Shown here: positions 16,679 to 54,238 of the stretch, in pieces
How the letters are laid out: each line of letters opens with the position of its first letter
Position numbering within the stretch: position 1 is the stretch's first letter
Assembly: GCA_031396695.1 (NCBI GenBank)
Contig: JANNLG010000016.1
Span: 54,494 to 118,493 of the forward strand
Reading direction: 5' to 3'
From: Deltaproteobacteria bacterium
GTDB lineage: Bacteria > Myxococcota_A > UBA9160 > SZUA-336
Length of the DNA stretch: 64,000 nucleotides
Notes under the pieces: generated by a model
Told to the model about the DNA's origin: nothing
What the model saw: the letters and a program-made list of their open reading frames with translations, nothing else
Databases searched by the model: none
Position numbers and translations under genes: made by a program

Positions 16679-16787
16679 CGGGCACAGACTAGGGCTAGCC
16701 CGCTTTGCGCGCGAGATCCTCGGTGGTAGCCTCAGCAAACTCCGGGTTTGAGGCCAAGGCTTTGTACGGAAAGGGAATTTCCCGCCA

Positions 16788-18125
16788 GTGATCTTCCCGC
16801 TGCGATTCAAGCTCGCGATCCTGTCGAGCGTCCTCCTGGTCGGCGCGATCGGCACCATCTCGCTCGTGGTGCTGGAGCGCAGCGCGCAGGCGCTGGCCGA
16901 CGAGGCCGGCAAGCGCGCGATCGTCCTGGCCGAGCAGCTCGCCCGCAACGCGCGCGAGCCGCTCCTGCTCGAGGACGACCTGACGCTCTCGCAGCTGCTC
17001 GAGACGGTCTCGGAGGAGTCCGAGGTCACCGTCACGCGCGTGCTCGACAAGAGCGGGCGCGTGATCGCCTCGTCGCGTCCCGACGACGTGGCGCAGCGCG
17101 ACCGCCTGACCACCGATCAGGAGCTCGCCACGCGGCCGAGCGGAGGCGTGCTGGTGGTGGCCGCGCGCATGACGTACCGCGAGCTCGACATCGGCGAGGC
17201 GCAGGTCGCGCTCGACGTCGATGCCGTCACGGGCCGTGTGATCCGAGCAGCGCGCCGCCAGGTCCTGGTCGCGGCCGGCATCCTGCTCGCGATCGGTCTC
17301 GCGATCGCGTTCGTCGTGTCCGGAATCCTGTCCCGCCCGCTGCGCCAGCTGCGCCTGGCGGTGAACGCGCTCGCCGCGGGCGACTTGTCGGCGCGCGTGC
17401 AGCCCACCTCGCGCGACGAGATCGGCGTGCTCGCGCGCGCCTTCAACGAGATGAGCGAGAGCCTGGGCGAGAAGCGCCGCATCGAGACGGCGTTCCGCCG
17501 CTACGTCTCCGACCACGTGCTGCGCGAGGTGATCGACTCGCCCGAATCGATCCACCTGAAGGGCGAGCTGCGCGAGGTCTCGGTGATCTACCTCGACATC
17601 CGCAAGTTCACGCGGCTGACCGGCACGATCGGACCGGAACGGACGGTCGCGTTCCTGAACGAGTGCTTCGATCTGATCACGGGGCGGCTGCTCGAGCACG
17701 GCGCCACGGTCGACAAGTACATCGGCGACGCGATCCTCGCCTACCTCGGCGCGCCGATCGAGACCGATGATCACGCGCAGCGCGCGGTCGCCGCAGCGAT
17801 CGCGGTGCAACGCGCGATCCACGAGCGGAACCGCCGCTGCGAGGCCACCGGCCAGCCGTTCGTGCGGCTCGAAGTCGGCATCGGCATCGAGACCGGCCCC
17901 GTGGTCGTAGGCAACATCGGTTCGGAGCTGAAGATGGACTACACCGCGATCGGCGAGCCCGTGAACGTCGCGAACCGGCTGCAGTCGCTCGCGGGCCCTG
18001 GCCAGATCAAGATCACCGGCGAGGTGCGCGACCGCATTGGCGAGCTGGTCGACGTGAAGGCCGAAGGTACGCGCATGCTCGAGGGGGTCGATCACCCCAT
18101 CGAGGTCTACGAAGTCCTCTACTAG
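16788..18125 (+). CDS. Adenylate/guanylate cyclase with two TM helices, periplasmic sensor and HAMP domain
   Basis: GTG start; N-terminal TM helix; HAMP (IGVLARAFNEMSESL); class III cyclase domain (VSVIYLDIRKFT..., YIGDAILAYLGAP). Confidence 0.75.
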   Translation: MIFPLRFKLAILSSVLLVGAIGTISLVVLERSAQALADEAGKRAIVLAEQLARNAREPLLLEDDLTLSQLLETVSEESEVTVTRVLDKSGRVIASSRPDDVAQRDRLTTDQELATRPSGGVLVVAARMTYRELDIGEAQVALDVDAVTGRVIRAARRQVLVAAGILLAIGLAIAFVVSGILSRPLRQLRLAVNALAAGDLSARVQPTSRDEIGVLARAFNEMSESLGEKRRIETAFRRYVSDHVLREVIDSPESIHLKGELREVSVIYLDIRKFTRLTGTIGPERTVAFLNECFDLITGRLLEHGATVDKYIGDAILAYLGAPIETDDHAQRAVAAAIAVQRAIHERNRRCEATGQPFVRLEVGIGIETGPVVVGNIGSELKMDYTAIGEPVNVANRLQSLAGPGQIKITGEVRDRIGELVDVKAEGTRMLEGVDHPIEVYEVLY

Positions 18126-22871: not shown

Positions 22872-23957
22872 ATGAAACTCGGCGCGTTCATGATGCCCTC
22901 GCACCCGCCCGAACGAAGCATCTACGACGGCTACCAGTGGGACCTGTCGCAGCTCGAGCTGTTCGACCGGCTCGGCTTCGACGAGGCCTGGATCGGGGAG
23001 CACTTCACCGCGCCTTGGGAGCCGAATCCGGCGCCCGACCTTCTGATCGCGCAGGCGCTCATGCGCACCAAGCGCATCAAGCTGGCGCCCGGCGCGCACC
23101 TGCTGCCCTACCACCACCCGGTCGAGCTCGCACACCGCGTGGCCTTCCTCGACCACATCTCGCAGGGTCGGACCATGCTCGGAGTCGGGATCAGCGCGCT
23201 GCCGAGCGATCTCGCGCTGTTCAACGTCGACGCAGCCACCGGACAGAACCGGCGCATGACGCTCGAGTCGCTCGACATCATGCTGCGGCTCTGGACCGAG
23301 GGGCCGATCAAGTTCGACGGCGAGTTCTGGTCGGTGCGCCCGCCCGAGACGCAGTTCGACTTCCTGTCCTTGCACCTGCGCCCGTTCCAGAAGCCGCATC
23401 CGCCGATCGGGATCGCCGGCCTGTCACCTGGGTCGGAGACGCTGAAGATCGCGGGCGAGCGCGGCTTCATGCCGCTGTCGATCTCCCTCAACCTCGCGCA
23501 CACCGCGTCGCACTGGGCCTCGATCGAGGCCGGCGCCGCGCGCGGCGGCCGCACACCGGACCGCCGCGATTGGCGACTCGTGAAGGAAGTCTACGTCGCG
23601 CGTACGGACGACCAGGCGCGCCGCTTCGCGCGCGAGGGCGCGATGGGCCGCTGCTGGCGCGAGTACCTGCTGCCGTTCTACCTGGGCAGTGGCATGCACT
23701 CGAGCTTCAAGGCCGATCCGAGCCACGCGGATTCGAGCCTGGACGTCGACTACCTGATCGAGCACAGCTGGTTCGTCGGCTCGGTGCAGACGGTCATCGA
23801 CAAGATCGGCGCGCACCAGCAGCGCACGGGTGGCTTCGGCGGACTGCTCGCGATGGTCTACGACATGAGCGGAGAAGCCGAGCGCTGGTCGGAGTCGCTC
23901 GAACTGCTCACGCGCGAAGTCATGCCGCACTTCCCCGAGGAGCGGAAGATCGGCTGA
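22872..23957 (+). CDS. LLM-class flavin-dependent oxidoreductase (luciferase-like monooxygenase)
   Basis: MKLGAFMMPSHPPERS... and GEHFTAPWE, typical of the LLM family. Confidence 0.75.
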   Translation: MKLGAFMMPSHPPERSIYDGYQWDLSQLELFDRLGFDEAWIGEHFTAPWEPNPAPDLLIAQALMRTKRIKLAPGAHLLPYHHPVELAHRVAFLDHISQGRTMLGVGISALPSDLALFNVDAATGQNRRMTLESLDIMLRLWTEGPIKFDGEFWSVRPPETQFDFLSLHLRPFQKPHPPIGIAGLSPGSETLKIAGERGFMPLSISLNLAHTASHWASIEAGAARGGRTPDRRDWRLVKEVYVARTDDQARRFAREGAMGRCWREYLLPFYLGSGMHSSFKADPSHADSSLDVDYLIEHSWFVGSVQTVIDKIGAHQQRTGGFGGLLAMVYDMSGEAERWSESLELLTREVMPHFPEERKIG

Positions 23958-23960
23958 CGC

Positions 23961-24635
23961 TCAGATGTGCTTGCGCACCTGAGTCGCGACGATGCCCGCG
24001 CCGACGATCATCAGCAGCACCGAGCTCGGCTCCGGGATCGGGTTGTTCGGGCCGGGGCCGGGCGTCGGGATGCGGTTCTCGTCGATGCGCAGCCCGGCGA
24101 GCGCGAAGTCGTTGTGCTCGCCCGAATCCGGCACGAGTCGGATCGAGGTGACCCAGCGGTTCACGCGCACGCTGAGCTCGCCGTCGCTGTTCGCGTAGTC
24201 GGAGTCGAAGTTGATGTCGAAGCCGTTGCCCATGATCGAGCCGGTCTCGTCGACGCGCAGGTAGTAGCGGCCCGAAGTGCTGAGCAGCGCGATGTCCACC
24301 GAGGTCAGGAACACGGCCTGCTCGAAGCGCACCGTGAGAACCTCCGGCGAGTCGATCTGGTACGTCGAGTCAGCGCTGCAGCCGCTCACCGAGCTCGGGC
24401 AGTTGATGCCCAGGCCGTTGCCGGAGCTCCAGGTCAGGTCGCTGCCGTTCGGGCTGGCGATGAACGTGACGTCGCCGAAGGCGGAGTTCCCGCTGTAGGT
24501 GACGGTCCCGTCGTAGCCGCTCGCGATGGTCGATCCGACGGAGCGCGTCAGATTGAGGCGCGCGGCACTCGCGGTGGAACCCAACAGGGTGGCAGAGGCA
24601 GCAAGGACGACAGCAGCGGACACCAGGAAGCGCAT
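23961..24635 (-). CDS. PEP-CTERM sorting-domain protein (secreted, exosortase substrate)
   Basis: N-terminal signal peptide MRFLVSAAVVLAASATLLGSTASA. C-terminus NNPIPEPSSVLLMIVGAGIVATQVRKHI is a PEP motif + TM helix + basic tail. Confidence 0.75.
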   Translation of the reverse strand: MRFLVSAAVVLAASATLLGSTASAARLNLTRSVGSTIASGYDGTVTYSGNSAFGDVTFIASPNGSDLTWSSGNGLGINCPSSVSGCSADSTYQIDSPEVLTVRFEQAVFLTSVDIALLSTSGRYYLRVDETGSIMGNGFDINFDSDYANSDGELSVRVNRWVTSIRLVPDSGEHNDFALAGLRIDENRIPTPGPGPNNPIPEPSSVLLMIVGAGIVATQVRKHI

Positions 24636-24681
24636 AGCGAAAGTACCCTCAGAGCTGGAAGTTTGGAGACCGATCCTCGAT

Positions 24682-24697
24682 GGTGATTTGTATCACC
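24682..24697. repeat. Inverted repeat GGTGA-N6-TCACC in AT-richer promoter region upstream of the PEP-CTERM gene
   Basis: Seen directly, in the 165-bp spacer between the selenoprotein stop and the PEP-CTERM gene start. Confidence 0.4.
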
Positions 24698-24800
24698 TTC
24701 CTAACTACCCGGTCAAGCTCACCTTTTTCGAACATTCAACGTTCGGAGTGGTATGCCAGCCACACACCGGAGGCAGCGAAGCGAAGCTTCGCGAGCTCCG

Positions 24801-25325
24801 CTACTTGGCGTCGGAAATTGCCTGTAGGACCGAGTCCACGATCGCCTCCGCCTTGGCGCGCATCTCGGCGTCGGTGGCGTCCTGGATCGGGTGAGGTACG
24901 AAGACGCAGCGAACGTCGGGCAGGCCGAGTGCGCGCGCCTGACCCGCGGCGGCGTCCTCGAAGACGCTCGAGGCCACGAAAACCGACGGCCGACCCTGGA
25001 GCTCGAACCAAACTGTGTCGTGCACACTGCACGTCGTACAGGAGCCTCAATCGGCCAGGGCTTCGATCACGAAGCCGCACTCCTCTGCGATCCGGCGCCG
25101 CAGTTCGAGCGGCGCGGGCTTGGTGAACGTGGGTTTGCGGTAGCGCCGGAACGCGACGTCGGGCAATCGCTCGCGCAGTAGCTGCTCGAGCCGGTCGAGC
25201 AGCACATCGCCGCGCGGCTTGATGATGTCGAGCAACGCGACCGTGCCCGTCACGGTGCCGTGTCGAGCCGCGAGCGCGCGGCGGATCGGCACGCGCTCAT
25301 CGGTGGGATCGAGAATCGTCGTCAC
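24801..25325 (-). CDS. UGSC-motif selenoprotein (in-frame TGA at 25049..25047 read as Sec)
   Basis: ORFs 25047..26003 (C-terminal ~92 codons) and 24801..25025 are in the same frame, separated only by TGA. Read-through gives ...IAEECGFVIEALAD-U-GSCTTCSVHDTVWFEL... (Sec-Gly-Ser-Cys then CxxC). Start GTG 25325 overlaps the upstream TGA (GTGA). A hairpin lies 7 nt downstream of the UGA. Confidence 0.6.
25013..25041 (-). promoter_or_regulatory. SECIS-like hairpin downstream of in-frame UGA
   Basis: mRNA sequence CUGU-ACGA-CGUG-CAGUGUG-CACG-AC-ACAG: 4+4 bp stem with internal loop and 7-nt apical loop, starting 7 nt 3' of UGA. Position is consistent with bacterial SECIS elements. Not energy-computed. 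Confidence 0.4.
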
Positions 25326-27949
25326 CCGGAGCTTCCCTCGTCTGTTTCGATCGCGCGGGTCGTCATTACAGAGCCGAGCGGTCCCGACACCCAGCCCTGG
25401 AAGTATGCGCCGAACTTCCCCGCCTCGCCGCCCGCGACGACCAGGGTGATGTCCCCGGGCGTGCGGAACTTCGGCACGCGCGCCTCGGCGCCGAGCTTCG
25501 CGAGCAGCTCGTCGGGCAGGCCCTCGGCGCAAACGTCGTCGCGCAGCAGCTCGCGCAGCGGACGCGACGTGACCTCCTGAATGCGCGCGCGGAGCTGATC
25601 CTTCGTGAAAGCGTCGCGTTTGAAGGTGTCGACGTGCTCGGGCGGCACGACCACCACGATCTCGCCGTGCAGGTAGTGCTTGGGGTGGTTCGCCGCCTGC
25701 AGCACGAGTCCGTAGCTGGTGGCGAGCCCGCGCGCATCGCGGGACAGCTGGTCGATGAAGCCGTTCGGCGCGCCGCCGGCGAAGGCGGTGACGGTGCTCT
25801 GCTCGCGCGCGAAGCCGCGCTCGACGTGCAGCGGCGCCCAGTCGCTGCGCTCTTCGTTCTCCGCGAAGCACATCGTGAACTTGCCCGGCTGACCGAGCGC
25901 CGCGCGGTCGACCTCGCCGGGTCGACCGCCACCCAGGTTCCGCACCACGAGCTGCACCGCCCGGCCGATCGTCGCGTTGGCGCGGTTGCCCTGCCCCAGG
26001 CAATTGATTCCGGAGTTCATGCCGATGCGCGCGCGGATCGGGCCGTTCACGATCAGCACCGGCGTGGGAAAGAACGTGGTCGCCAACACGCCGTGCAGGT
26101 TGAACTCGGGCGTGCAGATCGCCTCGACCGCTGCGATCACGACTGGAAGGTAGGCGGGCTTGCAGCCCGCCATGACCGCGTTGATCGCGATCTTCTCGAC
26201 CGTCGCGGGCGCGTAGTTCGGCGCGACCTCGGCCACCACGTCCTGCGCCGCGCGGCGTGTGCCCTCGAGCATGCGCATGACACGCTCGGGTGTCGGCGGA
26301 ACGACGGGTAGCCCGTCCGTCAGGCCCTGGTCGAACAGGAACTCGAACGGATCGTCGGCGTCGCCGAGCTCGATCCGGCGCGCGCGCATCGGGCTGCTCG
26401 AGGCACGCGCCTCGAACCGCGCGGCCACTTCGGGATCGTTCGTGCGCGAGCCGCAGCCGGGGCGAAGCTCAGGTAGACGCGACCAATCGCGCGCCGGAGC
26501 GGGCGTTCCGGCGAGCTGCGCCATGCGTTCGAATAGCGCGCGCCAATCCTCGCGCGCGAAGCCGACGTAGCGAGCGAGCTCCTCGCCCCCTGCGTCGAGC
26601 AGCACTGTGGTCGGAACTGCATCGATCTCCGCGCCGAACGAGACCGTGAGCGCGGAGTCGTCGAGAAACGGCGTGCGCAGGCCGTGCTTCTCGCGCAGCG
26701 CGCGCCCGCCGTCGTCATCCTGCGAGACGATCGCCACGTCGAGCACCGTGCCGAACGCTTCGTGCGCCGCCTCGACGATCGGAAGCGTGAGCTCGCAGGT
26801 GGGACAGCCCGCGTGGGCGAACACGAGCAGCCTCGCTCGGCCCGACGGCCACACGTGCGCGCGCGCATCGGTGTCGAGCAAGCGAAACGCGGGAACCGCC
26901 GCCACGCGCGCAGTATAGCCGGAGCGCCAGCGAGCCTGCGGGGCAGGCTTCGGAGCGCGCATCTTCTCGAGCTCGTGCTTGAAGCGCTCGCACGGGTCCT
27001 CGTCGTCGACGCGCGGCGTGAACCAGATCAGATCGAACTCCGTGCCGAACTCGGCCGCGCGTAGCGACGGGTCCTGCTTCGATTCGACGGAACCGGCGGG
27101 CACCTCGCTGAAGGCGAGCGTGAGCACTCGGCGCTGCGGCTCCCGCCGAGCCAAGTAGAGCGGCACGCCGCGGTCGCGCCGGACGTGCCCCGTGCCCGCG
27201 ATCAACACGCCACCGTCGGACTCGCCCGACCCGAGTAGCGCGTCGGCGAGCGTCGCGTCGCGCGCGCGTTGCACGGCGATCATCGCGTCGACCATCGCCT
27301 CGGGCGCCATCCCGCAGTGCGCCTCGCGCACTTCGTCCGCGAACGCCCGCCGCGCCTCGTCCGACGGGGGAGGCTCGAGCGCGAGCCGCGCGCGCTCGGC
27401 GGGCGGAAGCGCGTCGAGTGAGCGAAGCCGCATCTGCGCGAGCTGCGCGCGAGCGAGATCTCCGGGCACGATCGCCAACCGCGCTGCGAGCGCCGCCGCG
27501 AAGATCGGCCGGTACAGCGCGAAGTCGGGCCAGCCGCCGTGCGCCCAGTCGAGCGCCACGGCGAGCGCGTCGGGGTCGTCGGGATGCGCCGCGATCGCGG
27601 CCTCCAACACCGCTGCGCGATCGCGGGGAATCATCTCGAACACCACGGCCGGCCGCCGTCCCGCGCCCGCGAGCGATTCGACCAGCCACGCCTGCAGCCG
27701 GTGATGGTCCGGGTTGTCGTGCTTCTCGCCCAGCAGCACGAACGCGGAGCCGCGCGCGCGCGAGAGAACGTCGGCGGGCGTGACGAAGCGACGCTGTTCG
27801 GTGTCGAGGATGCGCCCGACCAACGCGTCCTCGCGACCCAGCGGTGCCTGCCAGGCGAGCCACGGCTCTGGCACCGCTCGCGGCGCGATCGCGGAATTCG
27901 CGCAGCCAACGACGAGGCTCGCGAAGAGCAGCGCGGTGGCGAGCCGCAT
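25322..27949 (-). CDS. 876-aa lipoprotein: ChaN-family domain + TlpA-like thioredoxin (CPTC) domain + C-terminal domain of unknown function
   Basis: Single stop-free frame from ATG 27949. Lipobox LVVGCANS. ChaN motifs VLLGEKHDNPDHH and VVFEMIPRD. Redoxin segment LLVFAHAGCPTCELTLPIVEA ... VPTTVLLDAGG. Then ~430 aa with Cys-containing conserved-looking blocks (AINAVMAGCKPAYLPVVIAAV, GINCLGQGNRANATIGRA). The upstream part of the 25322..28480 ORF is shadow. Confidence 0.6.
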   Translation of the reverse strand: MRLATALLFASLVVGCANSAIAPRAVPEPWLAWQAPLGREDALVGRILDTEQRRFVTPADVLSRARGSAFVLLGEKHDNPDHHRLQAWLVESLAGAGRRPAVVFEMIPRDRAAVLEAAIAAHPDDPDALAVALDWAHGGWPDFALYRPIFAAALAARLAIVPGDLARAQLAQMRLRSLDALPPAERARLALEPPPSDEARRAFADEVREAHCGMAPEAMVDAMIAVQRARDATLADALLGSGESDGGVLIAGTGHVRRDRGVPLYLARREPQRRVLTLAFSEVPAGSVESKQDPSLRAAEFGTEFDLIWFTPRVDDEDPCERFKHELEKMRAPKPAPQARWRSGYTARVAAVPAFRLLDTDARAHVWPSGRARLLVFAHAGCPTCELTLPIVEAAHEAFGTVLDVAIVSQDDDGGRALREKHGLRTPFLDDSALTVSFGAEIDAVPTTVLLDAGGEELARYVGFAREDWRALFERMAQLAGTPAPARDWSRLPELRPGCGSRTNDPEVAARFEARASSSPMRARRIELGDADDPFEFLFDQGLTDGLPVVPPTPERVMRMLEGTRRAAQDVVAEVAPNYAPATVEKIAINAVMAGCKPAYLPVVIAAVEAICTPEFNLHGVLATTFFPTPVLIVNGPIRARIGMNSGINCLGQGNRANATIGRAVQLVVRNLGGGRPGEVDRAALGQPGKFTMCFAENEERSDWAPLHVERGFAREQSTVTAFAGGAPNGFIDQLSRDARGLATSYGLVLQAANHPKHYLHGEIVVVVPPEHVDTFKRDAFTKDQLRARIQEVTSRPLRELLRDDVCAEGLPDELLAKLGAEARVPKFRTPGDITLVVAGGEAGKFGAYFQGWVSGPLGSVMTTRAIETDEGSSG

Positions 27950-40920: not shown

Positions 40921-41138
40921 CCACCGGCTAGCTCTCGATGGTGAGCCCCCTCCCCCCAGTGCCGCGGCACGTCGAGTGCCCGCGCGCCGGCCTACATGGC
41001 GGCGCGACGGGAGACTTGCGTTCGCGCACCGGGAACGGGCGCTCACCGGACCGCGACCATGCGGTTCGCACGTTGTGCCTCAACGAACCGGCTGCGACGG
41101 GAAAGCCCCGCCGCAGCCGGTTCCGCGAGGCGCTGGTG

Positions 41139-44100
41139 ATGCTCGCGCTCACCGTGCTTCTGTTTCCGTTCAGCGCACGCGCGCAGACACCCGCGGGCAC
41201 GCCGATCCCGAACACGGGCTACGCGACCTACGACATCGGCGCCACCACCGGAATCGTCCGGCCGTCGAACACGCTGGTCATCACGACCGCCGCGTTCGGA
41301 ACCAGTTCGAGCCTGGAGTTCATGCGCTATGCGCCCGGCGCTCCCGGCTCGATCACCTACGCCGTCTCGCCCACGCAGTGCTTCACGGGCGGATCGTTCA
41401 GCGCCCTGCCCGCGCCCACCGCGTACGGCGGCGGCGTGATCAACCTGGCCAACGTCGAGCTCGAGCTCACGTCGAGCTACCACCCGGGTGAGCCGGTCTT
41501 CGTGCGGCTGGTCGACGCGGATCAGAACCTGAATCCCGCGCTCGCCGAATCGATCCTGGTCACGCTCGCGACACCGAGCGTCGCGGACGTCGAGCAGCTG
41601 CAGCTCTTCGAGACTGGCGTGAACACGGGCATCTTCGTCGGCTACGTGCCCACGGCGGCGCCACCGGCGCCGGCGAACGACTGCGTGCTCGCCGCTCCGT
41701 CGGGTCAGACCGTCACCGGCAGCTACACCGATGCGAGTAACGCCGCGGACACCGATACCGACAGCGCGCTGATCGACCCCGAGAGCCGGGTCTTCGACAG
41801 CACGAACGGCTCGCCGGTCGACGGCGCGACCGTGACCCTGATCGACGACGCCACCGGACTGCCCGCTGCGGGCATCCTCGGCGACGACGGTCTCTCCGCC
41901 TTCCCCGCCACGCTCACCAGCGGCGGCTCGGTCACCGATGGCGGCGGGCAGATCTACAACTTCGGCCCGGGCGGCTACCGCTACCCGGTCGTTCCCGCGG
42001 GCAGCTATCGACTGCAGGTGACGCCGCCCGCCGCGTACACGTTCCCGAGCGGTGTGGCCGACGCCACGCTGCAGACCTTGCCCGGCGCACCGTTCGCGCT
42101 CGCGCTCGGCTCGCGCGGCGAAGTCTTCGCCGTGCCGGTCGGTCCGACCTTCCAGCTCGATCTGCCGGTCGACACCGCGTCGGGCTTCGGCTTCATCTCG
42201 ATCGACGCCAGCCGCGACGTGGTCTCGCTCGGCGAGCACTTCCAGTTCGACGTGCGCGTCGAAAACCCGGGCGTGCTCGGAGCGCCGCTCGGCGTCGACG
42301 TGACCGTCGTATTGCCGCTCGGCATCCGCTTCCTGCCCGGCAGCGTGCGCATCGACGACGGCAAGCAGCCCGATCCGGTGATCTCGCCGGACGGCCGCAC
42401 CCTGACCTGGACGCTACCCGCGAGCGCGCTCCCCGTCGTGACACACATCCGGTTCACCGTGAAGGTCGGGCCGAGCGCCGAGATCGGCCTCACGCGCACC
42501 ACCGCGCGCGCGCAGGCGCTGGGCGGAACGAGCACCGAGGACGCCGTCGCCACGGTGCGGGTCGTCGAGGACCTGGGCGCGAACAACTCCTACATCCTCG
42601 GCCGCGTTTCCGAGGGCGCCTGCGACACCGACGACTTCGGCGGCAAGGGCGTTTCGGGCGTGCGGGTGTACCTCGAGGACGGCTCGTTCTCGATCAGCGA
42701 CTCGAACGGCTACTACCACTTCGCCGGCGTCGTTCCCGGCGCGCACGTGGTGCAGATGGACGTGCAGAGCCTGCCCGGCTTCTACGAGCCGCTGCCGTGC
42801 GCGAAGGACGAAGGCCAGGCCTTCGCCGGCCGGCCGTTCTCGCAGTTCGTCGAGATGCAGGGCGGAACGATGTGGCGCAGCGACTTCCGTGTGCAGATGC
42901 GCGCGCGCGCGCAGGGCGGCATCAGCCAGCGGCTCGAGAGCCAGCTCGTCGGCGACACCATCCACTATCAGCTCGCGCTGCGCGGCAACGGCGTGGCCGT
43001 GCGCAATGCGCGTGCGATGGTGATGCTGCCCGAGGGCGTCCAGTTCGTGCCCGGCAGCACGCGCGACGCGGGCGCGCCGATGGCGGATCCCGAGTTCAAG
43101 GACGGCGTGCTCGTCTACCGGCTCGGCGAACACACCGAAGACAACTGGACGCTGGATCTCACGTTCGATGCGAAGCCCACGGGCCCGAGCGAGCGCCAGC
43201 TCGAGACGTCGTCCGTGGTGATGTTCGAGACGCCGGTCGAGAAGATCGGCAGGACGCCCGTCGCGAAGACGTTCCTTTCCGGCGAGTCGAGCTCGGGCAG
43301 CGGCATCCAGGTGGTCGAGACGCTCGGCCTGCGGCCGGGTGAGGATTGGAACTCGGTCACGACGCCCGCACCCGACGTCACGCCCGTGAAGCCCAGGGTG
43401 TTCAACAAGGCCTGGCTCGAGCAGGCGCAGCCGGGCTTTGCGTGGCTGTCGCCCGAGCCGGGCTTCGCCGCCGCGATCGCGAGCGTGAACATCGCCATTC
43501 AGCACGCGCCCGGCACCACACTCGAGCTGACGCAAAACGGCGTCGCGGTGCCCAAGTTCAACTTCGAGGGCGAGTTCTCCAACAACGCCAAGACCGTCTC
43601 GCTGTCGCGCTGGCGCGGCGTGGATCTGGTCGACGGCGAGAACGCCTTCGTGGTGCGCGCGCTCGACGCGCAGGGCAACGAAGTCGAGCGCTTCGAGCGC
43701 GGGCTTCACTTCGCCGGTCCGCCGTTCCGTGCCGAGCTCGTGCCCGAGCTCTCCAAGCTGGTGGCCGATGGCACCACGCCGCCGGTGATCGCCGTGCGCT
43801 TCACCGACGAGGACGACAAGCCCGCGCGCGAAGGACAGGTCGGCACGTTCCAGGTCGAGGCACCGTACCGCCCGAACCTCGAGCCCGCGCTGCGCGAGCT
43901 GAAGCGTCAGGCGGGCCAGCCGCCCGAGTTGCCGAGCTACGCGATCGGTCAGGACGGCATCGCGCTGATCGAGCTCGCGCCCACCACCACTTCCGGACGC
44001 GTGAACCTCCGCTTCGCGCTGGCCGGCAACCACGAGAAGAAGCTCCACCCCTGGCTCGAGGCGACCGCGCGCGAGTGGGTGCTGGTCGGCCTGACCGGTG

Positions 44101-46640
44101 GCACGCTCATGTACGACTCGGTCTCGGAGCACAGCGAGAGTCTCGTGCCGGGCGGCGTCGAGGACGGCTACGACCTCGACCGCGGCACCACCGTGTTCGC
44201 CAAGGGCCGCGTGAAGGGCTCGTGGCTGCTCACCGCCGCCTACGATTCGCGCCGCGAGTCGTACGAGTCGTCGAACGACATCGACCGCGCCGCGCTCGAA
44301 GGCGGTCTCGATCCGAACCAGTACTACACACTGTACGGTGACGAGACCACGCAGGGTTTCGAAGCGCCGAGCCAGCGCAAGCTGTACGTGAAGCTCGAGC
44401 GCAAGCAGTTCTACGCGCTGTTCGGCGACTTCCAGACCGGCCTCACGGTCACCGAACTGTCGCGCTACAACCGCAGCCTGAACGGTTTCCACACCGAGTA
44501 CGACGGCGACTACGTGAGCTTGAACGCGTTCGGCACCGACACCAGCCAGGCCTTCGTGCAGGACGAGATCCGCGGCGACGGCACGTCGGGCCTGTACCGG
44601 CTCTCGCGCCGCGAGATCGTGCTTAACAGCGAGACGGTATCGATCGAGATCCGCAATCGCTTCCACGGCGAGCAGGTGATCTCGACCGAGAACCAGGTGC
44701 GCTGGGTCGACTACAACATCGACTACAGCTCGGGCACGATCTTCTTCAAGCGGCCGATCCCGAGTACGGGCGAGGGCTTCAACCCCGTCTTCATCGTGGT
44801 GGAGTACGAGGCCGACGACGACTCGGACGAGGAGATCAACGGCGGCGGACGCGCGGCCGTGAAGCTGTTCGACGACAACGTCGAGCTCGGCACCTCGCTG
44901 ATCCACGAGGGCACGGTCGGGCAGACCTCGAGCCTGTACGGCAGCGATCTGCGCATCGACCTCGACGCCTCCACCAGCCTGCGCGGCGAGTACGCGATGA
45001 CGCGCTCGGCGCTGCTCGACTCGGACCTGGATCCAAACGGTGGCGCGTGGCTCGCGGAGCTTTCGCGCCGCGATCGCGATCTCGACTCGCGCGTGTACTG
45101 GCGCGAGCAGCGGCCGGGCTTCGGGCTCGGCCAGCAGAGCGCGAGCGAAACGAACATGCAGCAACTCGGCCTGGACGCGCGCTATCGCCTCTCCGACTCG
45201 CTCTCGCTCTCGGGCGAGGCGTTCCGCCAGGTCGACAGCGCCTCCGACGCGCGCCGCGATCTGTTCCAGGGCCGCGTCGATCACCACGAGGGACCGGTCA
45301 GCGCCTACGGCGGCCTGCGCTTCGCGCACGACGTGTTCTCGGACGGTGAGGACGCGTCGTCGCCGCAGGCGCTCGGCGGGGGCAGCTACACCCTGTACCA
45401 GAACCGACTGAAGCTGCGCGCCGACACGGAAGTGACGCTCTCGGGCGACGAGAGCCTCGACTTCCCGACGCGCTTCCTGGTCGGCGCGGACTTCGAGCTG
45501 CTGCCCGAGCTGACCGTGTTCGGCGAGGAGGAGTTCACGCTCGCCAGCGAGCGCAGCACCGCTTCCACGCGCGTGGGCTTGCGCACGAGCCCGTGGTCCG
45601 GCGGCCAGGCCACCGCGGCGATCGGCCAGCGCAGTCAGCAAGACAGCGCGCGCCTGTTCGGCACGCTCGGCCTGTTGCAGACCTATCAGCTCAGCGACGC
45701 GCTTTCGTTCGACTTCGCGGTCGACAACTCCGTGACACTCTCCGGTGACGACACGGCCGCGACCTCGATCTCGCCGTTCGCGCCCAACCAGCCGGTGAAC
45801 TTCGGCCTGGCCGGCAACGCGCAGGGCGACGACTTCACCTCGGTCTCCGTGGGCACCACCTACGCACAGGAGCTGTGGGCCGCGAACCTGCGCCTGGAGA
45901 CGCGGATCGGCAACGTGCAGGACAAGTGGAGCATCACCGCGGGCGCCTACCGCGAGCTCGCCGAGGGCATCGGCGTGGCCGTGCGCGCCGAATTCTTCGA
46001 CGCCAGCGGCTCGAGCTCCTCGCTCACCACCGGACCGGACGCGACCTCCGGCCCGGTCTACAGCTCCGACGGCAGCTTGCGCCCGAACACCGCCTACGAC
46101 GGCATCGAGTCGCTCGGCAAGCTGCGCGTGTCGGCGGTGTACCGTCCGATCGGCGGCCGCTACACGCTGCTCGAGTCACTCGAGCTGCGCAACGAGCGCC
46201 TGGACGACGCCGTCTTCCAGAGCAGCGCCACGCGCATCGTCAACAACATGAACCTGAACATCAAGCTCGATCGCAAGACGCAGGCTTCGCTGCAGTACGG
46301 CGCGAAGTACCTGCTCGAAGAGATCGACGGCGAGAACCTGCGCGGCTACACCGACGTGACGGGCCTCGAGCTGCGCCGCGCTCTGTGGGGGAGCTGGGAC
46401 GTCGGCGGCCGCGTGGGCATGCGCCACTCCTGGAGCGACGCCAACATCCAGGAGCTGTACGGCGTGTCGCTCGGATACATCCTGATGAAGAACATGTGGG
46501 TGAGCGCGGGCTACAACTGGGAAGGCTACCGAGACTCGGACTTCTCGGAAGGCGAGTGGACGAGCCGCGGGCCGTACATCTCGTTCCGGTACAAGTTCGA
46601 TCAGGAGACGGTGAAGGAGCTGCTCGACTGGGCGGAATAG
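41139..46640 (+). CDS. Giant (1834 aa) surface protein: signal peptide, DUF11-like repeats, carboxypeptidase-regulatory/SdrD-B-like segment, large C-terminal beta-rich domain
   Basis: Start taken at the ATG giving MLALTVLLFPFSARAQTP; upstream in-frame codons from 40938 lack signal character. Contains GTPIPNTGYATYDIGA DUF11 motif and SDSNGYYHFAGVVPG (CarboxypepD_reg-like). The C-terminal ~900 aa is Tyr/Gly/Ser/Asp-rich with alternating hydrophobics, consistent with a beta-barrel or beta-sandwich. Confidence 0.6.
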   Translation: MLALTVLLFPFSARAQTPAGTPIPNTGYATYDIGATTGIVRPSNTLVITTAAFGTSSSLEFMRYAPGAPGSITYAVSPTQCFTGGSFSALPAPTAYGGGVINLANVELELTSSYHPGEPVFVRLVDADQNLNPALAESILVTLATPSVADVEQLQLFETGVNTGIFVGYVPTAAPPAPANDCVLAAPSGQTVTGSYTDASNAADTDTDSALIDPESRVFDSTNGSPVDGATVTLIDDATGLPAAGILGDDGLSAFPATLTSGGSVTDGGGQIYNFGPGGYRYPVVPAGSYRLQVTPPAAYTFPSGVADATLQTLPGAPFALALGSRGEVFAVPVGPTFQLDLPVDTASGFGFISIDASRDVVSLGEHFQFDVRVENPGVLGAPLGVDVTVVLPLGIRFLPGSVRIDDGKQPDPVISPDGRTLTWTLPASALPVVTHIRFTVKVGPSAEIGLTRTTARAQALGGTSTEDAVATVRVVEDLGANNSYILGRVSEGACDTDDFGGKGVSGVRVYLEDGSFSISDSNGYYHFAGVVPGAHVVQMDVQSLPGFYEPLPCAKDEGQAFAGRPFSQFVEMQGGTMWRSDFRVQMRARAQGGISQRLESQLVGDTIHYQLALRGNGVAVRNARAMVMLPEGVQFVPGSTRDAGAPMADPEFKDGVLVYRLGEHTEDNWTLDLTFDAKPTGPSERQLETSSVVMFETPVEKIGRTPVAKTFLSGESSSGSGIQVVETLGLRPGEDWNSVTTPAPDVTPVKPRVFNKAWLEQAQPGFAWLSPEPGFAAAIASVNIAIQHAPGTTLELTQNGVAVPKFNFEGEFSNNAKTVSLSRWRGVDLVDGENAFVVRALDAQGNEVERFERGLHFAGPPFRAELVPELSKLVADGTTPPVIAVRFTDEDDKPAREGQVGTFQVEAPYRPNLEPALRELKRQAGQPPELPSYAIGQDGIALIELAPTTTSGRVNLRFALAGNHEKKLHPWLEATAREWVLVGLTGGTLMYDSVSEHSESLVPGGVEDGYDLDRGTTVFAKGRVKGSWLLTAAYDSRRESYESSNDIDRAALEGGLDPNQYYTLYGDETTQGFEAPSQRKLYVKLERKQFYALFGDFQTGLTVTELSRYNRSLNGFHTEYDGDYVSLNAFGTDTSQAFVQDEIRGDGTSGLYRLSRREIVLNSETVSIEIRNRFHGEQVISTENQVRWVDYNIDYSSGTIFFKRPIPSTGEGFNPVFIVVEYEADDDSDEEINGGGRAAVKLFDDNVELGTSLIHEGTVGQTSSLYGSDLRIDLDASTSLRGEYAMTRSALLDSDLDPNGGAWLAELSRRDRDLDSRVYWREQRPGFGLGQQSASETNMQQLGLDARYRLSDSLSLSGEAFRQVDSASDARRDLFQGRVDHHEGPVSAYGGLRFAHDVFSDGEDASSPQALGGGSYTLYQNRLKLRADTEVTLSGDESLDFPTRFLVGADFELLPELTVFGEEEFTLASERSTASTRVGLRTSPWSGGQATAAIGQRSQQDSARLFGTLGLLQTYQLSDALSFDFAVDNSVTLSGDDTAATSISPFAPNQPVNFGLAGNAQGDDFTSVSVGTTYAQELWAANLRLETRIGNVQDKWSITAGAYRELAEGIGVAVRAEFFDASGSSSSLTTGPDATSGPVYSSDGSLRPNTAYDGIESLGKLRVSAVYRPIGGRYTLLESLELRNERLDDAVFQSSATRIVNNMNLNIKLDRKTQASLQYGAKYLLEEIDGENLRGYTDVTGLELRRALWGSWDVGGRVGMRHSWSDANIQELYGVSLGYILMKNMWVSAGYNWEGYRDSDFSEGEWTSRGPYISFRYKFDQETVKELLDWAE

Positions 46641-48066: not shown

Positions 48067-49281
48067 ATGACGACACCCTCCGATCCGTTTCTCGGCGCGA
48101 ACCCGCTCGATCCCGCGTTCCGCGCCGATCCGCACCCGGCGCTGAAGCGCCTGCGCGAGACCCACCCCGTACACGAGACGGTGATCGGGCTGTGGCGGCT
48201 CTCGCGCTACGCGGACTGCGTTCGGCTGCTGCGCGACGCGCCGACGGGCGTGCGCCTCTCCGACGGCACGCGGCCGGGGCAGGACCGCATCCCCGCCGCG
48301 CTCGGCTCGTTCGGGCAATTCATGCTGCAGCAGGATCCGCCCGCGCACACGCGCCTGCGGCGGCTGGTGTCGAAGGCGTTCACGCCGCGCGCGATCGAGC
48401 GCCTGCGCGCGCACGTGCAGAAGCTCGCCGACTCGCTCGTCGAGCGCGCGCTCGAGCGCGGCGAACTCGACGCGATCGCCGATCTCGCGCTGCCCGTTCC
48501 GTCGACCGTGATCTGCGAGATGATGGGCGTCCCGCTCGCCGACCGCGAGCGCTTCACGCAGTGGACCGCGCACTCGACCCACCTGCTGGCCGCGTTCGCC
48601 GCGCCACCCGACGTGCTCGAGCGCGGCGTCGCCGCCTCGCAGGCGCTCGCGAGCTACTTCGAGGCGCTGATCGCGGAGCGCCGCAAGTCACTCGGCGACG
48701 ATCTGCTCTCGAACTTGATCCGCGCCGAGGAGGCCGGGGATCGGCTGTCGCCGCAAGAGCTGCTCTCGCAGTCGATCGGCCTGTTGATCGCGGGCTTCGA
48801 GACCACGATCGGCCTGATCGGGAACGGCCTGCTCCAGCTCCTGCGCCACCCCGCCGAGCTCGCCAAGCTGCGCGCGAACCCGGGCCTGATCGGATCCACC
48901 GTCGAGGAATGCCTGCGCTTCGACGGCCCGATCCTGCTCACCGTGCGCATCACCCAAGACGAAGTTCGCTTCGGCGAGCAGGTGATCCCGAAGGACCGCA
49001 TGGTGATGGCGCTGCTCGCCGCAGCGAATCGCGATCCCGAGGTGTTCCCCGACCCCGAGCGCTTCGACATCGAGCGCACGCCCAACGAGCACATGGCCTT
49101 CGGCGGCGGCACTCACTTCTGCCTGGGCGCGCACCTGGCGCGCATGGAGGCGCAGGCCGCGATTGGCGCGCTGGTGCGCCGCTCGTCGAAGCTCGAGCTC
49201 GTGTCGGACCAGCTCGAGTGGGGTCAGTCGCTGTTCCGCGTGCTCGGCAAGCTGCCGCTGCGGGTCACGCCGGCGCGCTGA
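48067..49281 (+). CDS. Cytochrome P450
   Basis: Heme-binding loop FGGGTHFCLGAHLAR, EXXR (ECLRFDGP), I-helix AGFETT. Confidence 0.85.
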   Translation: MTTPSDPFLGANPLDPAFRADPHPALKRLRETHPVHETVIGLWRLSRYADCVRLLRDAPTGVRLSDGTRPGQDRIPAALGSFGQFMLQQDPPAHTRLRRLVSKAFTPRAIERLRAHVQKLADSLVERALERGELDAIADLALPVPSTVICEMMGVPLADRERFTQWTAHSTHLLAAFAAPPDVLERGVAASQALASYFEALIAERRKSLGDDLLSNLIRAEEAGDRLSPQELLSQSIGLLIAGFETTIGLIGNGLLQLLRHPAELAKLRANPGLIGSTVEECLRFDGPILLTVRITQDEVRFGEQVIPKDRMVMALLAAANRDPEVFPDPERFDIERTPNEHMAFGGGTHFCLGAHLARMEAQAAIGALVRRSSKLELVSDQLEWGQSLFRVLGKLPLRVTPAR

Positions 49282-51166
49282 CGAAGCCGGCGGACGCGAG
49301 CTCCGTGCGCAGCGCGGAGCCGGGGGCGAGCAGGCGGATCAGCGCCTGCACGGCGGGGCGCTCGAGCCGCCGCTTCGGCACCACGAAATCGTAGTGCTCG
49401 AAGCGCAGCGGGCGAAAGCGCAGTCCCGACTCGCGCGCGACGCTCTCGATCGTCACACCCCAGTCGGCCCGGCCTTGCGCGACCGCCGCCGCGACCGCGT
49501 TGTGCGAACGCGGCTCGTAAGCGAAGCCGTCGGGACGCCGACCGCCGAGCAGACCGTCGATCAGCACGCGCGTGCCGCTGCCGCGATTGCGGTTCACCAT
49601 ACGCAAGCTCGTGTCGGCGACGAGCGCCTCCGTGGGCCTGCGCTCGTCCTCGCGCGTCACCACGCCCTGCATGCGCAGGTAGCCGGGCACCAGGGCGAGA
49701 GACTCGTCGAGGAACGGCGTGTTGTAGGTGTCGGTGGACGGATCGAGCAGGTGCGCGGGCGCGACGTCGCACTCGCCGCGGCGCGCGGCCTCGATCCCGC
49801 CCTGCGAGCCGACCGCGAGCAGCTTCACCGAGAAGCCCTCCGCGTGCAGCGCGCGCGCGATCCGATCCAGGCCCGTGCAGTGGCTGCCGATCACGACCAG
49901 GTCCGCCGGCTCGAGCGAGGGGCCGAGCAGAATCACCTCGACTTCCGTGTCCGCCTCGACGATCTCGAGGTTGCGACCCAGCCGCACGAAGCCGTCGGCG
50001 CGGCTCCAGGTCGTGACGCTGCCGCTGCCCTTTCCCATCGGGTACGCGCCGAGCTCGCCGCCTTCGCCCCGCACCAGCCCGACCAGCAGATACTCGAGCC
50101 GCCCGCGCTCGGTGTGGGTGCGCAGCGCGAGCTTCGCGCGCACCGCCTCGGAGCGCAGCGGCGGCGCGCCCGCCAGCCGGCGCAGCACCGGCGCGACGAA
50201 TTCGTGGAACGTGAACACCGCCGAGGTCGGGAAGCCGGGCAGGATCACGACGGGCTTTCCGTGGTGCGCGGCCAGGCAGATCGGCTTGCCGGGCTTGAGC
50301 GCCACGCCGTGCACGAGGATGCCCGGCTCGAGCTCCGCGACCACGCGGTACGAGAGGTCACCCTCGCCTTTCGACGTGCCGCCCGACAGAACCACCGCGT
50401 CGCACGCGGCGAGGCCCCGCTCGAGCGCGCGCCGCAGCGCGGATTCCTCGTCGCGGAACGCGCCGAAGAAGACCGGCTCGCCGCCGAGCTCGCGCACGGC
50501 GTCGGTGATCATGCGCCCGTTCGAATCGAACACGAGCCCCGGGCGCATCGCGTCGCCCGGGTCGATGATCTCGTCGCCGGTCGAGATCACCGCGACGCGC
50601 GGCTTGCGCACCACCGGAATGCGCGCGGCGCCGATCGCCGCCAGCACGCCGGTCTCGCGAGAGGAGAGGCGCTGGCCCGCGAACAGCACGGTCTCGCCCA
50701 GGCCGATATCGGTGCCCGCGAACGAGACCGCCGCGCCGGGCACGCGCGCCGCGCGCACCACCACGATCCGGTCGCCGTCTTCGACGTCGGTCATCTCCAC
50801 GGGCACGACCGCGTCGGCGCCGCGCGGCAGCATGCCGCCGGTCGCGATCGGCGTCGCCGTGCCGGGCTCCACACTGAGTCGCGGGTGGACACCGGTGGGG
50901 ATCGACTCGTCGTTTCGGCGCAGGCGCACCGGCTCGAGCTCGCTCGCGCCGTAGGTGTCCTGCGCGCGCACCGCGAAGCCGTCCATGTTCGAGCGGTCGA
51001 AGCTCGGCACGTCGACGGGCGCGCGCACTTCGCCGGCGAGCACGCGGTCGAGCGCGATCTCGAGCGGGATCTCCTCGCTGTCGAGCCGCGCGAGCGCGAG
51101 CGCGGCGTGCCAGCGCTGCTCGGCGACGTCGCGGTCGAGCACCTCGAGAAACTGCTCCTGCTTCAC
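49265..51166 (-). CDS. moeA: Molybdopterin molybdo/tungsto-transferase MoeA fused to C-terminal PBP-like domain
   Basis: MoeA N-terminal and MoCF-binding domains (VLSGGTSKGEGD) followed by a ~230-aa periplasmic-binding-protein-like domain. GTG start overlaps the upstream moeA stop (GTGA). Confidence 0.7.
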   Translation of the reverse strand: MKQEQFLEVLDRDVAEQRWHAALALARLDSEEIPLEIALDRVLAGEVRAPVDVPSFDRSNMDGFAVRAQDTYGASELEPVRLRRNDESIPTGVHPRLSVEPGTATPIATGGMLPRGADAVVPVEMTDVEDGDRIVVVRAARVPGAAVSFAGTDIGLGETVLFAGQRLSSRETGVLAAIGAARIPVVRKPRVAVISTGDEIIDPGDAMRPGLVFDSNGRMITDAVRELGGEPVFFGAFRDEESALRRALERGLAACDAVVLSGGTSKGEGDLSYRVVAELEPGILVHGVALKPGKPICLAAHHGKPVVILPGFPTSAVFTFHEFVAPVLRRLAGAPPLRSEAVRAKLALRTHTERGRLEYLLVGLVRGEGGELGAYPMGKGSGSVTTWSRADGFVRLGRNLEIVEADTEVEVILLGPSLEPADLVVIGSHCTGLDRIARALHAEGFSVKLLAVGSQGGIEAARRGECDVAPAHLLDPSTDTYNTPFLDESLALVPGYLRMQGVVTREDERRPTEALVADTSLRMVNRNRGSGTRVLIDGLLGGRRPDGFAYEPRSHNAVAAAVAQGRADWGVTIESVARESGLRFRPLRFEHYDFVVPKRRLERPAVQALIRLLAPGSALRTELASAGFVSAPA

Positions 51167-52434: not shown

Positions 52435-52468
52435 CGCGGAACCCGAGCCGCCTTCGGTGCTGTCCCTT

Positions 52469-54190: not shown

Positions 54191-54238
54191 CGCAATCCTC
54201 CTCGAAAGTATGGGCAGCGTACCACCGGACTCCGGCCT

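Follow-up and report, generated by a model that had tools for sequence, protein, structure and literature searches.

Proteins with a PEP-CTERM sorting domain are handled by exosortase (EpsH/Xrt), a membrane protein with at least eight transmembrane helices. A genome usually encodes several PEP-CTERM proteins (the median is eight), and in proteobacteria their genes are associated with a sigma-54/PrsR motif. The C-terminal end of the domain has been described as five residues long and strongly basic, and a warning has been given about genomes with single PEP-CTERM hits (Haft 2006, PMC1569441). The window analysed here, i.e., the whole 64-kb stretch of DNA, from an uncultured bacterium of Myxococcota type, probably holds a gene for one such small exported protein, in which a Sec signal, a beta-sandwich passenger and a sorting tail are combined, which has its own sigma-70-type promoter, and whose product would be sorted by exosortase to the surface or matrix.

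The gene spans 23961..24635 on the minus strand (stop codon 23961..23963 included) and encodes 224 amino acids from an ATG start, a call that draws on the list of open reading frames, a GC3 of 0.89, homologues and dN/dS. A Shine-Dalgarno-like GAGGG can be read from the sequence 10-14 nt 5' of the ATG (24646..24650, minus strand), and (G)AGG is shared at this position by most aligned loci. The N-terminus, MRFLVSAAVVLAASATLLGSTASA|A, has an MR/basic n-region, a hydrophobic core and an A-S-A site and, judged by inspection, is a Sec-type signal peptide (residues 1-24, 24564..24635, minus strand), with cleavage predicted after A-S-A; A24 is invariant in an alignment of 26 homologues (alignment A1). 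At the other end, the sorting domain (residues 199-224, 23964..24041, minus strand), delimited by HMM scores and invariance, comprises PIPEPSS, a transmembrane helix and RKHI, so that the C-terminus reads in order N-P-I-P-E-P-S-S, VLLMIVGAGIVATQV and R-K-H-I. The near-invariant Pro-Glu-Pro of such domains is found at residues 201-203 of 224, and directly after it comes the hydrophobic stretch VLLMIVGAGIVATQV (residues 206-220), which qualifies as transmembrane; a helix is predicted at residues 206-223, and column conservation of the transmembrane stretch is 0.83. The R-K-H-I end offers two basic residues and a histidine, with R221 invariant, and is weaker than the basic region of Haft 2006. 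Thus, the signal peptide and the IPEP, transmembrane and RKH tail that the first-pass annotation had assigned to this 224-residue reading frame are all present where it placed them.

The profile searches proposed in that annotation as a check gave a split result. The NCBIfam model TIGR02595 scored the tail at 19.0 bits, above its cutoff of 16, whereas the Pfam model PF07589 fell narrowly below its gathering score (18.5 vs 20.7). Conservation of the tail points the same way as the NCBIfam score: P199-I-P-E-P-S-S205, G212 and R221 are invariant in the 26 homologues of alignment A1, and the PEP-CTERM identity of the protein is borne out by the fixed PIPEPSS together with the above-cutoff TIGR02595 match. 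A homologue with 84% identity also carries the NCBI name 'PEP-CTERM sorting domain-containing protein [Myxococcota bacterium]'.

The same annotation had taken the tail to imply an exosortase elsewhere in the genome. No exosortase candidate was found among the scanned open reading frames of the 64-kb window. Its polytopic membrane proteins are limited to an MFS transporter and a DsbD_2-like protein, and no scanned frame lacking a Pfam family is predicted to have more than one membrane helix; nor was there a second PEP-CTERM protein in any of the six frames of the window. The sorting steps that we envisage come from established knowledge of PEP-CTERM systems (Haft 2006, PMC1569441; Haft 2023, bioRxiv 10.1101/2023.06.07.544157). 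After Sec export, the C-terminal helix would hold the protein in the inner membrane; an exosortase encoded elsewhere in the genome would recognise the PEP motif at the membrane face, remove the anchor and pass the protein to the cell surface or the exopolysaccharide matrix, where its lectin-like domain would most likely bind a glycan or matrix polymer. The observations that tell against this explanation are the PF07589 score just under the gathering score, the weak R-K-H basic end, and 64 kb with neither an exosortase nor a second PEP-CTERM protein. Each of them, as well as the warning of Haft 2006 on single-hit genomes, would fit a protein whose C-terminal helix is a mere anchor, i.e., a bitopic inner-membrane protein that keeps its beta-sandwich in the periplasm, undergoes no exosortase processing and resembles PEP-CTERM proteins only marginally or as a relic. 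We regard such an anchor as unlikely. A plain anchor needs no fixed motif at the membrane face, and the invariance of PIPEPSS in 26 sequences with variable transmembrane helices and basic ends speaks against it, as do the above-cutoff TIGR02595 score and the finding that 24 of 37 members of the wider family match PF07589 at E < 0.01.

Between the signal peptide and the tail, to which it is joined by a short Pro/Gly linker, lies a passenger domain (residues 25-190, 24066..24563, minus strand) with invariant C79 and C86 and a GxGLG...QID..E core. In the predicted structure, pLDDT is 80-93 across most of residues 22-190 and <50 for residues 1-21. The top Foldseek matches of the domain are CBM32 and discoidin domains, and the model is similar in fold to solved carbohydrate-binding modules, which indicates that the approximately 165 residues of the passenger are a beta-sandwich with a carbohydrate-binding-module/galactose-binding-like fold. 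By sequence, the passenger has no match in Pfam or NCBIfam outside the tail and so belongs to no described carbohydrate-binding-module family there, and a profile search of PDB sequences matched no chain. Structural matches to DUF4465 did not surpass matches to generic carbohydrate-binding modules. Named PEP-CTERM families were also considered and rejected: XDP1 (NF041927) scored 25.4 bits against a cutoff of 125, its best stretch (residues 174-221) being the tail only, and for XDP1, PepA, NF038129, THxN and EDSAP-1 alike the best stretches lay within the last 25-65 residues, far below the curated cutoffs.

The protein has approximately 34 homologues, all from Myxococcota-type metagenomes. Outside PIPEPSS they drift to 46-55% identity, and mean pairwise identity is 0.95 in the PEP motif, 0.64 in the passenger domain and 0.43 in the linker. 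Neighbouring genes are 75-95% identical across loci in which the PEP-CTERM protein is 46-84% identical. The full range for the protein is 46-88%, which omits the 34% of locus L015; L015 was rejected as an extremely divergent ortholog, since a frameshift appears to affect its middle part when it is compared with its 66%-identical relative. The dN/dS of the gene, 0.23-0.46 (vs 0.10-0.15 for the adjacent LLM oxidoreductase gene), places it under purifying selection. The rate of evolution of the protein is several times that of its neighbours, whereas its PEP motif is invariant, and a passenger that diverges fast beside a fixed sorting motif neatly illustrates how selection differs between cargo and tag. 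In a profile search at E <= 0.001, the family grew to 168 cluster representatives. With few exceptions these are 200-230 aa long, have near full-length matches and end in a PEP-CTERM or related tail.

The region upstream of the gene appears to hold a promoter of its own. The 165-bp spacer at 24636..24800 has a GC content of 0.539, compared with 0.699 in the window, and the lowest-GC stretch of this length in the entire 64 kb (24625..24789, 0.521) nearly coincides with it; the spacer had been noted as the most AT-rich stretch of its neighbourhood, and this holds for the whole window. Fifteen distinct loci (12 in alignment A2, plus L017, L018 and L019) were compared. A -35 hexamer, TTGACC (24711..24716, minus strand), is invariant in all 15 and lies 18 nt 5' of TACAAA, which forms part of an extended -10-like element, TG-A-TACAAA (24687..24695, minus strand), recognised by its conservation across the compared loci. 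Within alignment A2, all 12 loci have the G of the TG and 11 have its T; the next two bases, TA, are retained in 10 loci, L007 and L013 being the exceptions, and are also present in L017-L019. Just 5' of the -35, an A-rich tract, AAAAAGG (24722..24728, minus strand), in which two A positions are invariant in A2, is possibly a UP-like element. The gene is thus predicted to have a sigma-70-type promoter of its own, with TTGACC, an 18-nt spacing and TG-n-TA(C/G)AAA, conserved in every orthologous locus examined, and the earlier placement of a promoter in this AT-rich spacer is supported. The distant homologues L021 and L022 likewise have upstream intergenic regions, of approximately 300-390 bp, and lie outside exopolysaccharide loci. 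A consensus promoter scan of the region around the gene returned no site, since a T is missing from the end of the -10 hexamer. A sigma-54 -24/-12 promoter was rejected: both GG-N10-GC matches of the spacer are in stretches that the loci do not conserve. When 23500..25500 was scanned against Rfam at E <= 1, no known riboswitch, leader or small RNA was detected.

Overlapping the -10 is a palindrome, GGTGATTTGTATCACC (24682..24697; GGTGAT-N4-ATCACC, with 6-nt arms, a 4-nt centre and the core GTGA-N6-TCAC), which had been proposed as a plausible operator. Its position was confirmed; a role as an operator is possible at most, given its overlap with the -10, its absence from six orthologous promoters and the frequency of such repeats in shuffled sequence. 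A perfect 6-bp inverted repeat whose loop does not exceed 10 nt is found in 29% of spacer shuffles, and the window contains the core once where 0.81 occurrences are expected. The palindrome alone is not beyond chance, and any significance must come from comparing loci, not from single-sequence statistics. GTGAT..ATCAC is retained in L001, L004, L008, L009, L010 and L017, and GTGA-N6-TCAC in L007 and L013/L014; the palindrome is absent from the corresponding promoter position in L003, L011, L012, L015, L018 and L019. The core is thus present in 9/15 distinct orthologous promoters and absent from 6/15. Much of this conservation may be promoter conservation, since the palindrome overlaps the -10.

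A true operator is conceivable but doubtful. In this case a repressor dimer, such as a CRP/FNR-type protein, would bind GTGA-N6-TCAC over the -10 and block the promoter, possibly in response to a cyclic nucleotide from a conserved neighbouring HAMP-cyclase. The CRP/FNR consensus is TGTGA-N6-TCACA. Seven distinct loci share the 14-nt GTGATAC(A/G)AATCAC with hardly any change despite divergence of the flanking 5'-UTR, yet the left arm is the TG-extended -10 itself, which accounts for half of the conservation without an operator. Likewise, L007 and L013/L014, at 48-50% protein identity, keep GTGA-N6-TCAC with a different central six bases and a different distance to the -35, whereas the six orthologous promoters without the palindrome keep the -35 and the -10. 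At the outermost position of the arms, the window and L017 have G..C, L004 and L010 have C..G, and the two bases do not pair in L001, L008 or L009. The motif occurs only once in most of the approximately 20-kb loci, and a gene with HAMP and class III cyclase domains is conserved nearby, although the window has no excess of CRP-like sites (3 vs 10.2 expected with <=2 mismatches) and no Crp/Fnr-family gene was found among its scanned open reading frames. As judged from these comparisons, the palindrome may be a repressor site in part of the clade at most, or else the -10 plus sequence inherited among close relatives.

The gene had been described as lying immediately downstream of a selenoprotein operon, and this is confirmed. 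The upstream neighbour (24801..25325, minus strand) has an in-frame TGA at 25047..25049 in the context ALAD-U-GSC and, with U replaced by C, scores 157.6 bits on the NCBIfam model UGSC_fam (NF041046; cutoff 125), by which it is identified as a genuine UGSC-family selenoprotein. On the other side, the stop of the convergent LLM oxidoreductase gene ends at 23957 and the complement of the PEP-CTERM stop starts at 23961, leaving 3 nt (23958..23960). The 'no room for terminators' of the first-pass annotation is accurate as geometry, and an intrinsic-terminator scan of 23700..25100 detected no terminator-like site; however, abutting convergent stops recur in related loci with gaps of 3-30 nt and are therefore a normal feature of the region rather than a peculiarity. 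The RNA across the convergent junction is structured (z = -2.9), with structures that differ between loci. Right after the UGSC stop codon, a GC-rich hairpin without a T-run (24769..24799, minus strand; -26 kcal/mol, z = -2.6 in the window) may act weakly as a terminator. The matching stretch in five other loci folds no better than shuffles; the hairpin is not conserved, and transcription may read through from the UGSC operon into the PEP-CTERM gene.

Upstream, the cluster comprises genes for a gamma-carbonic-anhydrase-like protein, a DsbD_2-like membrane protein, a ChaN-like haem-binding lipoprotein, a thioredoxin-like 527-aa protein and the UGSC selenoprotein. It could be imagined that the PEP-CTERM protein acts together with this cluster, for example by capturing a cofactor or metal as a surface receptor, in the manner of the DUF4465/BtuJ B12-binding proteins, which share its fold. 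The gene is co-directional behind the cluster in all loci that reach far enough upstream (all except L012), down to 46% protein identity, and it stays behind the ChaN-like gene where Trx527 and UGSC are deleted (L004, L008 and L010). These loci, however, represent one shallow lineage, and with neighbours 75-95% identical in all of them the synteny may be plain inheritance, for which reason it was discounted as proof of a functional tie to the UGSC/ChaN cluster. In addition, the gene has its own predicted promoter, the DUF4465 matches have no edge over generic carbohydrate-binding modules, and the distant homologues L020, L021 and L022 lie in unrelated contexts. A joint function with the cluster thus seems very improbable.

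Several described systems can be compared with the protein. TraA of Myxococcus xanthus (PMC11980579) is, like the present protein, a myxobacterial surface protein with a variable lectin-like domain and a C-terminal tripartite sorting tag, although the parallel is one of analogy only: the protein described here is far smaller, and its tag, a PEP-CTERM, has no counterpart to MYXO-CTERM's invariant Cys, so that a different sorting enzyme would be needed. The analogy could be carried further. The passenger would then define an undescribed and fairly widespread small lectin-like family sorted in the exosortase manner (168 or more clusters at 50% identity, no Pfam/NCBIfam model), and in this Myxococcota lineage the gene would encode a surface molecule that diversifies rapidly, recognises matrix, prey or kin in analogy to TraA's variable lectin domain and is switched by a repressor on GTGA-N6-TCAC over the -10; in this full form we consider the proposal improbable. 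RTX adhesin modules, including the putative Aeromonas salmonicida RTX carbohydrate-binding module 9q5u (bioRxiv 10.1101/2025.09.30.679566; PMC12077191), share Gram-negative surface display and a sequence that is highly variable between relatives. However, 9q5u, whose own ligand is only putative, has only 13% sequence identity to the passenger and is not among the 50 best Foldseek matches, and an RTX module is part of a giant type I-secreted adhesin, whereas the present domain makes up a free-standing 224-aa protein with a PEP-CTERM tail. XDP1 (NF041927), PepA (NF033554), NF038129, THxN and EDSAP-1 have the same plan, i.e., approximately 200-260 aa with a signal peptide, a passenger and a PEP-CTERM tail, but the passenger domain here belongs to none of these families.

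The PEP-CTERM/exosortase system itself is matched in its signal peptide, in a PEP motif followed by a transmembrane helix and basic residues, in a passenger without a Pfam family, in a single gene placed behind a comparatively large AT-rich intergenic region, and in an environmental two-membrane bacterium as host. The differences are a weak basic end (RKH), no partner exosortase or further PEP-CTERM proteins within 64 kb, and a promoter that looks sigma-70-like, without conserved GG-N10-GC, in contrast to the sigma-54/PrsR type of proteobacteria. Thus, the cargo list of the PEP-CTERM/exosortase system gains a free-standing carbohydrate-binding-module-like domain, and an uncultured Myxococcota lineage provides a PEP-CTERM gene under a predicted sigma-70-type rather than a proteobacterial sigma-54/PrsR promoter. 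Understanding of the PEP-CTERM system is unchanged by these findings; the practical gain is better annotation and a defined unnamed domain family fit for a model. The gene product is an ordinary, fast-evolving secreted protein that belongs to a known kind of system.

The open reading frame at 23961..24635 on the minus strand (224 residues; GC3 0.89, in a window of 70% G+C) was correctly spotted by the first-pass annotation but is ordinary, being an additional member of the PEP-CTERM cargo class. The descriptive statements of that annotation (the reading frame and its ends, the spacer, the palindrome coordinates, the convergent stops and the upstream selenoprotein) are all correct. The protein begins with MRFLVSAAVVLAASATLLGSTASA followed by A and ends in NPIPEPSSVLLMIVGAGIVATQVRKHI, and the ATG is preceded, at 10-14 nt, by a GAGGG ribosome-binding site. 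The C-terminus, first described as a textbook PEP-CTERM tail, passes the NCBIfam model TIGR02595 (19.0 bits, cutoff 16) and narrowly fails the Pfam model PF07589 (18.5 bits, gathering score 20.7). The comparative evidence for the tail is stronger than these scores. A database search yielded 34 homologues, all metagenomic or MAG-derived, the named organisms being Myxococcota, Myxococcales or 'delta proteobacterium'. When 26 of the homologues were aligned, P-I-P-E-P-S-S, G212, V216 and R221 proved invariant in the tail, and mean pairwise identity is 0.95 in the motif, 0.74 in the helix, 0.64 in the passenger domain (residues 25-190) and 0.43 in the linker. A motif fixed at the membrane face amid drifting surroundings has the look of an enzyme recognition site.

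Support for a putative partner enzyme is indirect and comes solely from the invariance of the PEP motif. No second PEP-CTERM tail was found in a six-frame scan of the 64-kb window, and no exosortase family was found among the candidate window ORFs scanned with Pfam or NCBIfam; no more than one membrane helix is predicted in any of those that lack a Pfam family, and the only polytopic membrane proteins among the candidates are an MFS transporter and a DsbD_2-like protein. This absence says little, because exosortases are typically encoded elsewhere, within exopolysaccharide loci (Haft 2006, PMC1569441). The window also holds a 1902-aa ORF (40932..46637, plus strand) whose GC3 is very high (0.93) and which matches no Pfam family above threshold, its sole match being a weak CarboxypepD_reg. 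In a minus-strand cluster (49268..54238), an aldehyde:ferredoxin oxidoreductase (AFOR) gene is grouped with two genes of MoeA type for molybdopterin/tungstopterin biosynthesis, one carrying a fused PBP-like domain.

Outside the tail, the protein has no match in Pfam or NCBIfam, and a sequence-profile search of the PDB returned none. In an AlphaFold2 model built from the 26-sequence alignment, residues 22-190 fold as an all-beta sandwich, with pLDDT 80-93 across most of this region and a low-confidence loop at 122-129. The invariant passenger residues include C79 and C86 and an acidic set (D66, D89, D95, E98); a disulfide is plausible, as is a site for a metal or ligand. In a profile search, 168 of 1.84 billion cluster representatives matched at E <= 0.001, and 37 of these at E <= 1e-10; nearly all are 200-230 residues long and align over almost their full length. 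Sampled members carry a terminal VPEP, or a related motif (VPEL or VPIPA, for example), ahead of a hydrophobic stretch and RRR, and PF07589 is detected at E < 0.01 in 24 of 37 sampled members. Membership in the named small PEP-CTERM families XDP1, PepA, THxN, NF038129 and EDSAP-1 was rejected, since the sampled members' top matches to them are confined to the last 25-65 residues and fall far under the cutoffs. Given these tails and tail-only matches, the passenger represents an unnamed family found repeatedly as the cargo of exosortase-type tags; it is a free-standing domain resembling a carbohydrate-binding module.

The 165-bp spacer upstream of the gene (24636..24800; 53.9% G+C) had been singled out as AT-rich, and the 165-bp interval with the lowest G+C anywhere in the 64 kb (24625..24789, 52.1%) indeed overlaps it. 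An alignment of upstream regions from 12 distinct loci, with inspection of three more, showed that a minus-strand -35 element, TTGACC (24711..24716), preceded by an A-rich tract, is invariant. Eighteen nucleotides downstream lies an extended -10, TG-n-TA(C/G)AAA (24687..24695, minus), in whose TG the G is invariant and the T nearly so across the 12 loci. Judged by this conservation, the two elements constitute a predicted sigma-70-type promoter with an extended -10, and the gene would be expressed from its own conserved promoter. A simple consensus scan misses it because the TACAAA hexamer lacks the final T. No conserved sigma-54 motif was found in the locus alignment and spacer scan, and no Rfam family was found in the spacer.

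The inverted repeat proposed as a plausible operator, GGTGATTTGTATCACC, does lie at 24682..24697. On the gene strand it reads GGTGAT-ACAA-ATCACC, and its left arm and centre are therefore the extended -10 element itself. In favour of an operator, GTGAT..ATCAC is retained in six of the homologous loci (L001, L004, L008, L009, L010 and L017) despite otherwise diverged 5'-UTRs, and in L007 and L013/L014 GTGA-N6-TCAC is retained, its centre differing and its distance to the -35 being 2 nt shorter; the outer pair shows covariation in some loci (G..C vs C..G) and is unpaired in others. However, the palindrome is missing from the -10 position in L003, L011, L012, L015, L018 and L019, though the -35 and -10 are kept. 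A 6-bp inverted repeat occurs in 29% of shuffled spacers, the palindrome core is found a single time in the window (0.81 expected), and CRP-like sites are not enriched (3 vs 10.2 expected). A genuine operator is rather unlikely, and it would have to be a repressor site, because the palindrome covers the -10 element. The repeat is best understood as the -10 region, a clade-specific repressor site being an unproven possibility. In L011 (5828-5841), a GTGA-N6-TCAC lies on the UGSC stop codon (AAGTGATCGAGATCACAG), approximately 100 nt upstream of the -35 and away from the -10. A plus-strand gene for a HAMP and class III nucleotide cyclase protein (16752..18125) lies a few kb away from the PEP-CTERM gene, and every long related locus has it with 90-95% conservation; any connection to the CRP-like palindrome is speculation.

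The convergent LLM oxidoreductase stop ends at 23957 and the complement of the PEP-CTERM stop begins at 23961, as first described, and stops that abut in this way, 3-30 nt apart, are seen again in related loci. Scanning on either side of the gene revealed no intrinsic terminator. The convergent junction is structured in the window (z = -2.9), with structures not conserved between loci. A hairpin directly after the UGSC stop (24769..24799; -26 kcal/mol, z = -2.6) lacks a T-run, and in five other loci the corresponding stretch is no more stable than shuffled sequence; transcription from the UGSC operon may therefore read through.

The long loci L001, L003 and L017 share the order of a Suf operon and Rrf2 regulator on one strand, followed by a cluster of gamma-carbonic-anhydrase-like, DsbD_2-like, ChaN-like (Cofac_haem_bdg), thioredoxin-like 527-aa, UGSC and PEP-CTERM genes, although the 527-aa gene is called only in part in L003 and L017 has an additional OmpA-family gene. 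The shorter L011, L018 and L019 retain as much of this order as they reach, and in related loci LLM, enoyl-CoA hydratase and DUF1015 genes converge on the cluster. The UGSC selenoprotein gene (24801..25325, minus; in-frame TGA 25047..25049, context ALAD-U-GSC) scores 157.6 bits on NCBIfam UGSC_fam (NF041046; cutoff 125), and in several related loci gene callers report it as two separate pieces, of 92 aa and 74 aa. The 527-aa gene (25325..26905, minus; TlpA/MauD-like thioredoxin N-terminus with a CPTC motif, then approximately 400 residues without a family match) accompanies UGSC in loci that carry UGSC and reach far enough upstream. In the window, the ChaN-like lipoprotein ORF continues in frame into it through a TGG codon (26927..26929, minus), where L001, L017 and L011 have a stop; a fusion, a read-through allele and a sequencing error are all conceivable. 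The 527-aa and UGSC genes are both absent altogether from L004 (8800-10000), L008 (1-520) and L010 (4800-6000), in which the PEP-CTERM gene, together with its promoter, comes immediately after the ChaN-like gene. In L008 the ChaN-like ORF ends in sequence resembling the UGSC tail, which suggests a deletion.

Across related loci, neighbouring proteins are 75-95% identical to those of the window, and for the PEP-CTERM protein identity falls from 84% to 46-55%. L015, at an apparent 34%, was set aside: in this copy (2205-2828) an Arg/Asp/Gly-rich middle replaces the conserved GSDLTW...GLG...C...C core, and it is probably frameshifted, as a pseudogene or through assembly error. Against the window, dN/dS is 0.23-0.46 for the PEP-CTERM gene and 0.10-0.15 for LLM, with dN three to six times that of LLM. 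The gene is therefore real and constrained, yet fast-evolving, as is frequent among surface proteins. Because their neighbours are so similar, these loci represent one shallow lineage, and adjacency to the selenoprotein cluster is thus weak evidence of shared function. Distant homologues have unrelated gene contexts. The two with long flanks, L021 and L022, have upstream spacers of 300-390 bp and fit the pattern of long upstream spacers described for PEP-CTERM genes (Haft 2006, PMC1569441). The basic end of the present protein, R-K-H, is weaker than in the definition given in that study, whose tripartite PEP-CTERM architecture the tail nonetheless matches.
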